From Nanobdellota archaeon (GTDB taxonomy: Archaea > Nanobdellota > Nanobdellia > Woesearchaeales > JBHPFW01), in NCBI GenBank assembly GCA_042571645.1, contig JBHPFW010000006.1, positions 4,131 to 68,130 of the forward strand: a DNA stretch of 64,000 nt. The letters are read 5' to 3'. Shown piece after piece: positions 62,062-64,000 of this stretch. How positions within the stretch are numbered: position 1 is the first letter of the stretch; each line of letters opens with the position of its first letter. The position numbers were made by a program, and so were the translations under genes. Under the pieces are notes generated by a model, which saw only the letters and a list, made by a program, of their open reading frames with translations, ran no database searches and had not been told where the DNA came from.

Positions 62062-62454
62062 TTAAGTTTGAATTTCTTGATTAGGATTTTCTTCTGGCTC
62101 TTCTTTTTTCTCAGGTATTTTTTGATATTCTACTTCTTCTTCCTCTTCACCAGCAGAAAGAATATTTTCCTCATCTTCGATCTCTTCTTCTGGAATTTCT
62201 TCTGCAATGCCTTCTTCAACTACTTTAGTTCTTTTTTTAGCTACAGAATATGCTTTTGAAGTAAATTTAGCCAAGCATTTTTTGCAGTGCCAAATGCCTG
62301 ATGAGATCCTTTTAACCTGTATATAATTGCAATAAGGGCAGCTTTGTTTTTTGTGATAATAAGAAGATTCTGCTGCGCCAAGTTTTTCTTTGACTGTTCG
62401 TCCATATCTTGCGCCAAAGCGTTTTATTGAAGGATAAGTAGTCTTTGTAACCAT
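62062..62454 (-). CDS. rpl37ae: Ribosomal protein L37ae (eL43) with a ~45-aa acidic C-terminal extension
   Basis: The core is KRFGARYGRTVKEK...CPYCNYIQVKRISSGIWHCKKCLAKFTSKAYS. The tail is EEGIAEEIPEEEIEDEENILSAGEEEEEVEYQKIPEKKEEPEE. Confidence 0.9.
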   Translation of the reverse strand: MVTKTTYPSIKRFGARYGRTVKEKLGAAESSYYHKKQSCPYCNYIQVKRISSGIWHCKKCLAKFTSKAYSVAKKRTKVVEEGIAEEIPEEEIEDEENILSAGEEEEEVEYQKIPEKKEEPEENPNQEIQT

Positions 62455-62619
62455 TTTAGATCATTATTTGTTCTTTATTTTGATTTTTAAGCTTTATTTG
62501 TTGTTTTTAAGCCCTTTTAAGCTTTATTTATTCTTTTTTACCCCTTTTTAGCTGTTTTCTAAGAAAAATAAGCGGTTTATAAAAGTTTTGCAGTATTTCT
62601 CCCTATTTTGATCATAAAA

Positions 62620-62797
62620 TGGGGCTACCCAGATTCGAACTGGGGTCTTCTGGCTTTTTTGTATAAGCTCAGTTGAGCCTAACACCCAAACCAGAGAGGA
62701 TAGATTGCCTCCCGTAATTCCAGCAATTCACTAGAATTGTGCAGGACCAGGCTACCCCATAGCTTAATGCTGAATAACCTTTAGGTTATAAAGTCCC
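62620..62797 (-). tRNA. tRNA-Pro(UGG) candidate interrupted by a canonical 37/38 intron and two putative non-canonical introns (3/4 and D-loop)
   Basis: The minus strand carries a T-arm CCCAG-TTCGAAT-CTGGG and a 3' acceptor TAGCCCC followed by A and then a T-run. The anticodon arm is TCTGG-TTTGGG[30-nt insert]G-CCAGA. The D-arm is T-G-GGGT-AGCCTGGTCC[42-nt insert]A-TCCT. The 5' acceptor GCTA is preceded by a 31-nt hairpin-containing insert and then GGG (62795-62797). The exons sum to 75 nt. No CCA is encoded. Confidence 0.65.
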
Positions 62798-62898
62798 ATC
62801 GTATGGAATAGCATTATATGCGGGTTAATCTCTGCTTTTTAAATGTATCGCTGATTCAAGTATTATAATAGAATAAGAAAAAATAAGTTAAAAAGATT

Positions 62899-64000
62899 TT
62901 AATTTACTGGCCAAGTTTGGTAGGTTCCTCCTTTGCAAGCACCATCTTCACATCCCATTGGGCATCTTACTATTTTGGTCTTGTAGGTGCCTCCACAGTA
63001 AAACTCTATTAATCTGTCGGTACCGTCAGAATCAGCTCCCCAGCAATGGTCATAAACTCTGTCATAGTTTGAGTTAGTATCTAATCCTGCAGATGTTATC
63101 CTCTTGTTAAGAACTTTGATGTATCCCTTCTTAAAGAAGTTTGTTTGAGGGTGCTGACCATCTACATCGCTTTTGAAATAGCAAGCTCCTGGTTCATAAC
63201 CTGAGCCAGTATCTCTTCCGCACACTCCTAATCCACAAATAGTTGGTTTTGGGCAGTCATATACTTCTCTTTGCAACATGCCTGTGTTTTTATTACAGAC
63301 TAATTTATTGACTTGAAGTATATTTTCGCAGTTATCATACTCAGTGACCCATTTCCATCCAGCCCATACTCTAACAGATCTTAGATTACTTTTTTTATCA
63401 TTACTGTCTGGAATTTTAGTCAAGTAATTTTTTGTGTCCATATCAATCGGATTACACTGTCCTTCTTTGTATTCAGAAGCTACACTGTCACTAGTGTCTA
63501 CTTGTGTTGTGAAGCTTACTTGGGATGATGCCAACTCACCTATTTTGTATTCAGAAAAATAGGTTTTTGAATTAATATTGTAGAATCCGATTTGGCCTTG
63601 TGTTCTTTTTAATGGCATTGTTCCAATCTTCACAGCATTTACTCTAATTTCTGCTTCATTAGGACTAATCACTTTGATGTGTATTGTGGCTTCTTCTGCG
63701 TTTTTGGTATTCACTCCTTTGCCAGCTAATGATATTGTTTTCACATAATTTTCGTTTCTATCAGCACAAGAACCTCCCCATCCATATTGCAAGAATCCAA
63801 GGTCGAATTTTATATTTACATAATGATAACCTGCAAGAGGTCTGACGCCTGAGAGTGTTAAAGGTTGATTGCAATCAGGCCATTGCATTCCAAATGTAAT
63901 TCCTCCACTACGATCTCTGCCTACTTTTTGAGGTCTTATTCTAACCAGAATCTCTTTCCCTAACGCATCAAAATAAGGTTGAGATTTGGTTGCATCATAT
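62899..64000 (-). CDS. 3' part of a Cys-rich secreted-type protein whose 5' end lies beyond the window
   Basis: The frame of the 62899..63888 track ORF remains open to nt 63999 (...YDATKSQPYFDALGKEILVRIRPQKVGRDRSGGITFGMQWPDCNQ...). The C-terminal half has many Cys (CPKPTICGLGVCG, CPMGCEDGACKGG). No family was recognised. Confidence 0.55.
   Translation of the reverse strand, partial: YDATKSQPYFDALGKEILVRIRPQKVGRDRSGGITFGMQWPDCNQPLTLSGVRPLAGYHYVNIKFDLGFLQYGWGGSCADRNENYVKTISLAGKGVNTKNAEEATIHIKVISPNEAEIRVNAVKIGTMPLKRTQGQIGFYNINSKTYFSEYKIGELASSQVSFTTQVDTSDSVASEYKEGQCNPIDMDTKNYLTKIPDSNDKKSNLRSVRVWAGWKWVTEYDNCENILQVNKLVCNKNTGMLQREVYDCPKPTICGLGVCGRDTGSGYEPGACYFKSDVDGQHPQTNFFKKGYIKVLNKRITSAGLDTNSNYDRVYDHCWGADSDGTDRLIEFYCGGTYKTKIVRCPMGCEDGACKGGTYQTWPVN

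Follow-up and report, generated by a model that had tools for sequence, protein, structure and literature searches.

The stretch of DNA analyzed here, called the window, comprises 64,000 nucleotides (nt) of contig JBHPFW010000006.1 (positions 4,131 to 68,130) from assembly GCA_042571645.1, a Nanobdellota archaeon of the order Woesearchaeales. On its minus strand, at 62797-62620, lie the pieces of a proline tRNA with the anticodon UGG: GGG, GCTA..., a D-arm, the UGG anticodon arm, and a T-arm with its acceptor strand, collinear over a span of 178 nt and separated by three inserts. A putative TATA box precedes them, a run of T's follows directly, and rpl37ae is the conserved downstream neighbor (Table 1). 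As judged from sequence, the locus is very probably a single functional tRNA-Pro(UGG) gene carrying three bulge-helix-bulge (BHB) introns. The gene is a known kind of interrupted tRNA, here in a little-studied lineage of the DPANN archaea.

Table 1. Features of the tRNA-Pro(UGG) locus (window positions) and examples of interrupted tRNA loci elsewhere in the genome (positions on contigs C3 to C22, with minus-strand coordinates counted on the reverse-complemented contig)
Feature	Position	Strand	Sequence or remark
Putative TATA box	62836..62843	-	TTTAAAAA, 38 nt upstream of G1
5' leader	62798..62812	-	Holds outer and central helix strands of the intron 1 BHB
Exon 1	62795..62797	-	GGG, tRNA positions 1-3
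Intron 1	62764..62794	-	31 nt, at 3/4
Exon 2	62747..62763	-	GCTATGGGGTAGCCTGG, positions 4-19
Intron 2	62705..62746	-	42 nt, D-loop, at 19/20
Exon 3	62685..62704	-	TCTATCCTCTCTGGTTTGGG, positions 20-37, anticodon UGG, G37
Intron 3	62655..62684	-	30 nt, canonical 37/38 site
Exon 4	62620..62654	-	GCCAGAAGACCCCAGTTCGAATCTGGGTAGCCCCA, positions 38-73
TTTT run	62616..62619	-	Directly 3' of the discriminator; likely terminator
rpl37ae (L37Ae)	62062..62454	-	Pfam PF01780; conserved downstream neighbor
Interrupted tRNA locus	C3 2889-3059	-	Guide alignment
Interrupted tRNA locus	C15 6434-6601	-	Guide alignment
Interrupted tRNA locus	C10 20229-20372	-	Guide alignment
Interrupted tRNA locus	C19 11326-11564	+	Guide alignment
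Interrupted tRNA locus	C22 337-482	+	Guide alignment
Interrupted tRNA locus	C22 702-863	+	Guide alignment
Interrupted tRNA locus	C22 924-1037	+	Guide alignment
Interrupted tRNA locus	C9 15257-15428	+	Guide alignment

Identity of the spliced product

Joining the four exons gives a sequence of 75 nt that ARAGORN calls as tRNA-Pro(tgg) with a clean cloverleaf. In the spliced 75-mer the acceptor stem has seven pairs, the anticodon and T stems have five each, and the D-arm is normal; U33, G37, and a GTTCGAATC T-loop are present, and the G+C content is 61%, compared with 34% for the genome. After the 42-nt insert and before the 30-nt insert, the minus strand reads ...ATCCTCTCTGGTTTGGG, and exon 4 contributes the 3' strand of the anticodon stem, the variable region, an intact T-arm, the 3' acceptor strand, and the discriminator A. 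The CCA end is not encoded in the gene. For comparison with uninterrupted genes, the locus was searched by BLAST against 60 relatives, all from other families and genera of the same order, and tRNA-Pro(UGG) was found in 10 of them. The spliced product has all of the invariant columns in common with these 10 uninterrupted genes, at a mean column identity of 87%, and is ∼93% identical to the uninterrupted tRNA-Pro of relative G006, with about five differences.

The tRNA-Pro gene was detected in the whole window neither by ARAGORN, run with and without its one-intron search, nor by Rfam at the gathering threshold. Whole-genome ARAGORN runs with and without the one-intron search also left it undetected, and relaxed thresholds (-ps80/-ps90) yielded only noise. 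No second tRNA-Pro(UGG) and no other copy of the mature sequence occurs in the 1.49-Mb assembly, nor does any paralogue of the three introns. A first-pass annotation of this DNA had proposed a tRNA-Pro(UGG) whose pieces, adding up to 75 nt, are separated by inserts at positions 3/4, in the D-loop, and at 37/38. Its pieces and inserts, including a hairpin ATAACC-taaa-GGTTAT, all lie on the minus strand where it had placed them, and the reading agrees with in-silico splicing, homology, BHB geometry, covariation, and the genome-wide context. It had also suggested running ARAGORN with intron search and looking for an intact tRNA-Pro(UGG) elsewhere; the locus goes uncalled, yet the spliced 75-mer is called as tRNA-Pro(tgg), and the 1.49-Mb assembly contains no intact copy. 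A split or permuted tRNA gene was ruled out, the four exons being collinear within 178 nt on one strand.

Bulge-helix-bulge geometry at the three junctions

The geometry tested at each junction consisted of an outer helix, a 3-nt bulge, a helix of 4 base pairs (bp), a 3-nt bulge on the opposite strand, and an inner helix, with the cut falling after the second bulge base, and the resulting scores were compared with those of 300 shuffles per intron. Explicit tests of this sort were used because nearest-neighbor energies disfavor two bulges around 4 bp; the minimum free energy (MFE) fold of the whole precursor shows no BHBs. Judged in this way, the two junctions at non-canonical positions are predicted to be good BHBs and the junction at the canonical site a relaxed one.

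At 3/4, the precursor contains an hBHBh' (helix-bulge-helix-bulge-helix) motif, whose central helix GAUG/CAUU lies between the bulges GG|A and AA|G; the inner helix CU/AG is followed by the 6-bp hairpin AUAACC-uaaa-GGUUAU. Leader bases GAT (62800-62798) together with G1 form the 5' strand of the central helix, and, beyond one C.C mismatch, leader bases GCUAUUCCAUA pair with exon bases U6-C16 to form an outer helix of 11 bp (GCTATTCCATA, 62812-62802). The BHB score exceeds that of shuffles at p∼0.01, the local fold, like those at the other two introns, is far more stable than shuffled sequence (z score, -3.8), and the fold containing the BHB lies 0.9 kcal/mol above the MFE. Transcription is predicted to start ∼15-16 nt before G1 on the basis of the usual archaeal TATA-to-start spacing, and the resulting leader of ∼15 nt holds exactly the strands that the 3/4 motif needs. 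The TTTAAAAA element is kept in most of the relatives' loci with readable upstream sequence. Orthologous loci carry a GATAGATTTAAAAAGC-type element 37-38 nt before G1, a spacing measured in the window and in relatives G097 and G209.

Intron 2, at 19/20, is built around a central helix GCCU/AGGC, flanked by the bulge GG|U and by AA|U with an additional C; the inner helix is CCUG/CGGG, of 4 bp, and in the outer helix, of 6 bp, G9-A14 pair with U..U25. Its BHB score against shuffles is p∼0.003, its local fold z score is -2.8, and the BHB-containing fold lies 1.9 kcal/mol above the MFE. With this junction, the last bases of exon 2 are ...AGCCTGG and the first of exon 3 are TCTATCC.... The first-pass annotation was correct in that an insert of 42 nt is present in the D-loop; its junction, however, shifts 3 nt further 5', with the intron still 42 nt long and the mature D-loop reading ...GGUCUA instead of ...GGUCCA. 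It had pointed to the 3/4 and D-loop junctions as those in which to look for acceptable BHB motifs, and both have them.

The exact site of the D-loop cut deserves comment, since bases are repeated at the intron borders and several junction pairs yield a 75-nt product. A functional three-intron gene might be cut at 20b/21, giving ...GGUCCA, or 1-2 nt from 19/20. Five relatives do splice one base later, at 20/20a, and the D-loop form ...GGTCCATCC is present in G006, G040, G186, and G292, although ...GGTCTATCC is also a natural D-loop, found in G059 and G067. The 19/20 register alone combines four of four central pairs and 3-nt bulges with inner and outer helices of 4 and 6 bp, and a hand check of the originally proposed register found no central helix. 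We consider a cut at one of these other sites unlikely.

At the canonical 37/38 site, intron 3 has the bulges GG|U and AA|G, an outer helix supplied by the anticodon stem, and, as its inner part, a 6-bp hairpin, AGGCUC-aacu-GAGCUU. The local fold z score is -4.4. A poly-A 3' end permits the register to slip.

Conservation and covariation among relatives

Genomes of the order (about 400; 400 or 401 depending on the scan) were searched for the 3/4 junction with the pattern ATTAA|GCTRTRGGGTAGCYTGG, allowing two or fewer mismatches at this 3' junction. It was matched in 22 genomes from 16 genera, and a reversed-pattern control gave no match. All 22 of the introns have four of four central helix pairs, bulges GG|A(U) and AA(AU)|G, and an adjoining inner helix. 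The central helix itself varies, being GATG/CATT in the window and AATG/CATT, CATG/CATG, TACG/CGTA, CACG/CGTG, TGTG/CACA, or AGCG/CGTT elsewhere, with double substitutions at three of the four pairs. Together with the promoter spacing and the predicted leader, this pattern of covariation constitutes strong evidence that the 3/4 insert is a selected, leader-dependent BHB intron.

Introns in the D-loop were sought as 20-50 extra bases between GGGTAGCYTGG and ATCCTYTCTGGTTTGGG, and were found in 8 of 401 genomes, again with none in the control. Each of the eight has four of four central pairs and 3-nt bulges, with inner helices of 3-9 bp. Two registers occur: the window, G347, and G007 share 19/20, and G144, G274, G186, G292, and G153 have 20/20a. 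Within the 19/20 group there is a compensatory pair, C17:G in the window (GCCU/AGGC) versus U17:A in G347 and G007 (GCUU/GAGC). At 37/38, most relatives, seven in number, have four of four central pairs and a YAAR end; for this comparison, mis-anchored script rows (G024, G161, and G007) were left out, and the window genome, G000, was judged by its geometry score and by hand. A variant with an extra A at 37/38 is common to the window, G097, and G262.

The tRNA-Pro(UGG) gene varies widely across the order, carrying 0-3 introns at no fewer than four sites (3/4, 19/20 or 20/20a, 37/38, and 59/60) in many combinations (loci L134-L165). Three relatives whose loci matched across intron 3 proved to have interrupted genes: G009 has introns at 3/4, 37/38, and 59/60, and G024 and G040 have them at 37/38 and 59/60. 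In metagenomes, an exact-pattern scan gave no matches and a second scan returned one contig, Ga0209976_10033803, on which a tRNA-Pro(UGG) upstream of rpl37ae has the same three intron positions with unrelated intron sequences and no T-loop intron. In a separate observation, the tRNA-Pro of G186 contains an additional insert of 12 nt, apparently at 53/54 (CCCCGG-aaaccaggggaa-TTCAAATCCGGG).

Splicing enzymes and proposed processing

The genome encodes one EndA of 177 amino acids (contig C5, ∼34.9-35.5 kb), with N-terminal and catalytic domains (PF01974, PF02778, and TIGR00324). Its best PDB matches are the Nanoarchaeum equitans catalytic subunit (3IEY_A) and the alpha4 EndA of Methanocaldococcus jannaschii (1A79), and the alignment to the latter is gapless over residues 38-177, with the Tyr, His, and Lys residues aligned. 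No second EndA-like open reading frame or paralogue was found in the assembly, which is 82% complete. Each of eight closed or near-closed relatives, carriers of 3/4 and D-loop introns among them, has exactly one EndA gene. These observations point to an alpha4-like architecture, presumably assembled as a tetramer. The first-pass annotation had called for determining the EndA subunit type, which proves to be a single alpha4-like gene, and had supposed that three introns would require a broad-specificity endonuclease. That requirement is not supported: the motifs at 3/4 and 19/20, being near-canonical, do not demand such an enzyme, and a single alpha4-type EndA of ∼180 amino acids is what the genome and the eight relatives contain. 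A gene for RtcB is also present (C2:16808-18100, 571 bits) and has no stops.

A processing pathway may be proposed from these elements. The promoter ∼40 nt upstream would give a precursor with a leader of ∼15 nt. This leader would form base pairs with exon bases 6-16, and leader and G1 would jointly pair with the intron 1 3' end, giving the hBHBh' motif at 3/4; the D-arm region and intron 2 would form the second motif at 19/20, and the anticodon arm and intron 3 the third, relaxed motif at 37/38. A single alpha4-type EndA would then cut within each 3-nt bulge, and RtcB would join the four exons. Because the 3/4 intron needs the 5' leader, splicing would be expected to precede removal of the leader, with RNase P acting after the intron 1 cut and CCA being added afterwards. 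The leader-dependent intron thus makes a prediction of its own, namely, splicing ahead of RNase P cleavage.

Removal of the inserts by some other route, such as self-splicing, or their toleration as extra arms in an unspliced RNA, has next to nothing to commend it. Group I and group II introns are far longer than these inserts of 30-42 nt, which break the acceptor stem, the D-loop, and the anticodon loop and would keep an unspliced RNA from folding into a tRNA. The inserts also carry the motif that EndA recognizes, the helices covary to keep that motif, and both EndA and RtcB are encoded.

Points against a functional gene

Several observations weigh against a functional gene with three BHB introns spliced as described. 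Several of them concern intron 3. In the register that gives a 7-nt anticodon loop, its central helix UUUG/AAAA has only three of four pairs and a G35.A mismatch; by hand reading, four of four pairs are obtained only with a 4-nt 3' bulge. Its BHB score (p∼0.13) does not beat shuffles, and its BHB conformer lies 8.5 kcal/mol above the MFE, which is a symmetric GGG/AAA internal loop. This large gap arises because the MFE fold slips on the poly-A tract. The other two motifs fall slightly short of the ideal: at 3/4 a C.C mismatch follows the 3' bulge, and at 19/20 the 3' bulge has one C too many. Cutting of the D-loop intron 1-3 nt off the favored site is also conceivable. Position 38 is G where A is commoner; relatives G053 and G034 have the same G. 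Lastly, with an assembly 82% complete, a second EndA subunit or another tRNA-Pro(UGG) might be encoded on the missing DNA.

The incompleteness of the assembly also counts in favor of a pseudogene. On that account, the locus would be a decayed tRNA-Pro containing insertion debris, with the working tRNA-Pro(UGG) located elsewhere, for example, in unassembled DNA. Also in favor of this account, neither ARAGORN nor Rfam calls the locus, and the 37/38 BHB is imperfect. A decayed gene would hardly be expected to keep all of the invariant and near-invariant tRNA-Pro positions, with stems that are perfect once spliced, or to show BHB geometry at each insert, with the 3/4 and D-loop junctions conserved and covarying in 22 and 8 genomes, respectively. 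The promoter, terminator, and synteny are kept as well, 1.49 Mb of sequence contain no other copy, and all of the other recovered tRNA genes of this genome are likewise interrupted, which makes interruption the normal state here. We therefore regard a pseudogene as very improbable.

Interruption of tRNA genes across the genome

Standard finders return no tRNA-Pro at this locus and almost no tRNAs in the genome as a whole. ARAGORN found no intron-free tRNA gene in the 1.49-Mb assembly and only 3-4 genes in total, each with one anticodon-loop intron. Only one RF00005 match lies above the cut-off, versus 33 in G006, and in a scan of the order that scored at most 30 candidates per genome, G000 was the sole genome of 151 without an RF00005 match at E<=1e-6. 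A simple T-arm scan located only ∼4 real T-arms genome-wide.

When the tRNAs of G006 were used as guides for spliced alignment, ∼17 tRNA loci were recovered in G000, each with 1-3 inserts; several isoacceptors had no guide. Three inserts are present in iMet, Ile-GAU, Trp, Val-UAC, Arg-CCU, Gly-UCC, and Ser-GCU. Upon raw splicing, ARAGORN confirmed the expected tRNA and anticodon for 11 of the ∼17. The guide alignment misplaces some junctions by a few bases, and for this reason the expected tRNA was not returned for iMet, Cys, Gly-UCC, Ser-GCU, Thr-CGU, and a locus on contig C1, and the BHB scores of those six are unreliable. Among 40 introns scored in the genome, 18 beat shuffles at p<0.05, where ∼2 would be expected. 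Most of the recovered tRNAs have a T-loop intron at 59/60 with a clear BHB, in which the T-stem is the outer helix, U54-R57 pair with YGAA, and the bulges are AA|N and AR|U60. These 59/60 introns account for the failure of T-arm-based finders on this genome.

One homologous 59/60 intron of ∼40 nt (TATTGGCGCCTGAAGCAAATGCTTCGAACGTCAGTGAGAAAG) occurs in six tRNAs: iMet (C3), Ile-GAU (C15), Ile-UAU and Glu-UUC (C22), Leu-UAG (C9), and Cys-GCA (C7). Five of the copies are 93-100% identical over 18-44 nt, and the Cys copy is similar by eye only. The family suggests that an intron has spread between tRNA genes. Over 34 nt, the D-arm introns of Arg-CCU and of the C1 locus share 91% identity. Low RF00005 counts are also seen in genomes of the order that are more than 90% complete, with 2 matches in G137, 4 each in G077 and G126, 5 in G129, 7 in G011, and 9 in G071. 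Cryptic tRNA genes are probably common across the Woesearchaeales.

A broader reading, offered tentatively and at rather less than even confidence, is that disruption here is extreme, with every tRNA gene interrupted and none intron-free. A plain alpha4-type EndA without the known specificity loops would suffice, as near-canonical hBHBh' motifs are kept wherever introns occur, in some cases through purpose-built leaders, and intron saturation and the spread of T-loop introns would be under selection. If this is so, intron saturation possibly shields tRNA genes from the integrases and homing endonucleases that target them, and the tRNA counts by which DPANN bins are graded would be systematically too low. 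Quality criteria based on tRNAs and inferences about codon usage for DPANN bins are in any event biased, because the finders miss interrupted tRNAs.

Comparison with known systems

Several introns per tRNA gene, with rare examples at 3/4, have been described in the Thermoproteales Pyrobaculum, Thermofilum, and Caldivirga (Sugahara et al. 2008, as summarized by Yoshihisa 2014, PMC4090602). Non-canonical positions, among them 20/21 and 59/60, occur in Crenarchaeota and Nanoarchaeota, with 3/4 "in an extreme case" in Thermoproteales, and tRNA genes with three introns are known, as are groups of similar introns shared by unrelated tRNAs (PMC4090602). The genome studied here resembles the Thermoproteales in having up to three BHB introns per gene and non-canonical introns at 3/4, in the D-loop, and at 59/60, and its T-loop intron family in six tRNAs parallels their "intron transposition" (PMC4090602). 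It differs in its host, a mesophile-type woesearchaeal DPANN archaeon with 34% G+C and 1.5 Mb, in the conservation of a 3/4 intron in one orthologous gene across many genera, and in the absence, by ARAGORN, of any intron-free tRNA gene. The enzymes differ as well: Thermoproteales have an (alpha-beta)2 EndA with a Crenarchaea-specific loop (CSL), whereas a single alpha4-like gene is found here.

L1/CSL was not found in DPANN by Kaneta (2018, PMC5829648), where alpha4 EndAs with an "L3" loop accompany increased tRNA disruption and where incomplete DPANN tRNA sets are taken as a hint of undetected disrupted genes. Full-text searches of the literature turned up no account of tRNA genes with several introns in Woesearchaeota other than the Kaneta et al. 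hint. Disruption of other kinds is known in DPANN, namely, the split tRNAs of N. equitans and the non-canonical introns of ARMAN-1 and -2 with an epsilon2 EndA (Fujishima 2011, PMC3239211; Kaneta 2018, PMC5829648). Those organisms belong to the same superphylum, and their tRNA genes are likewise hidden from standard finders. Unlike in N. equitans, the four exons follow one another within a single 178-nt gene, without trans-splicing. Unlike the EndA of N. equitans and ARMAN, the one here is not a three-unit fusion, and no second subunit was found in the assembly; it also lacks two small insertions of the N. equitans subunit.

The canonical 37/38 archaeal intron has an hBHBh' motif (Marck & Grosjean 2003, as cited in PMC4090602). 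Intron 3 conforms in its position, in its use of the anticodon stem as the outer helix, and in the pairing of positions 32-35 with the intron 3' end, and departs from it in the G35.A mismatch, which results from an extra A in the poly-A tract. Near-canonical BHBs at 3/4 and in the D-loop, in combination with a single alpha4-like EndA, bear on the question of what limits non-canonical splicing, the type of EndA subunit or the quality of the motif. The tRNA-Pro(UGG)-rpl37ae locus, with its 0-3 introns, also provides a natural series for following intron gain and loss.

Neighboring genes and other observations

The order tRNA-Pro to rpl37ae is found in nearly all of the relatives' loci and marks the orthologous locus, and a T-rich stretch lies 3' of the gene in some of them. 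L37Ae in the window has 130 amino acids, of which residues 9-84 form the Pfam domain, followed by a very acidic C-terminal tail of ∼45 residues (EE..EEIEDEE..EEEEEVE..). The upstream neighbor (62899-63999, minus strand), open at the window end, encodes a Cys-rich protein of at least 366 amino acids without a Pfam match; it is not a LAGLIDADG or integrase gene.

In several relatives, at loci L139 (G379), L155 (G262), L154 (G026), and L150-L153 (family f26), the acceptor 5' strand (GGGGCT..., AGGCTGTA...) occurs again in the leader, further upstream; the leader in the window has no second copy of this kind. At L162, in G292, a second copy of the tRNA 3' end (TCCGGGCGGCCCCA) lies ∼190 nt downstream of tRNA-Pro and has the appearance of a duplicated attachment site, from an element that integrated into the tRNA gene.

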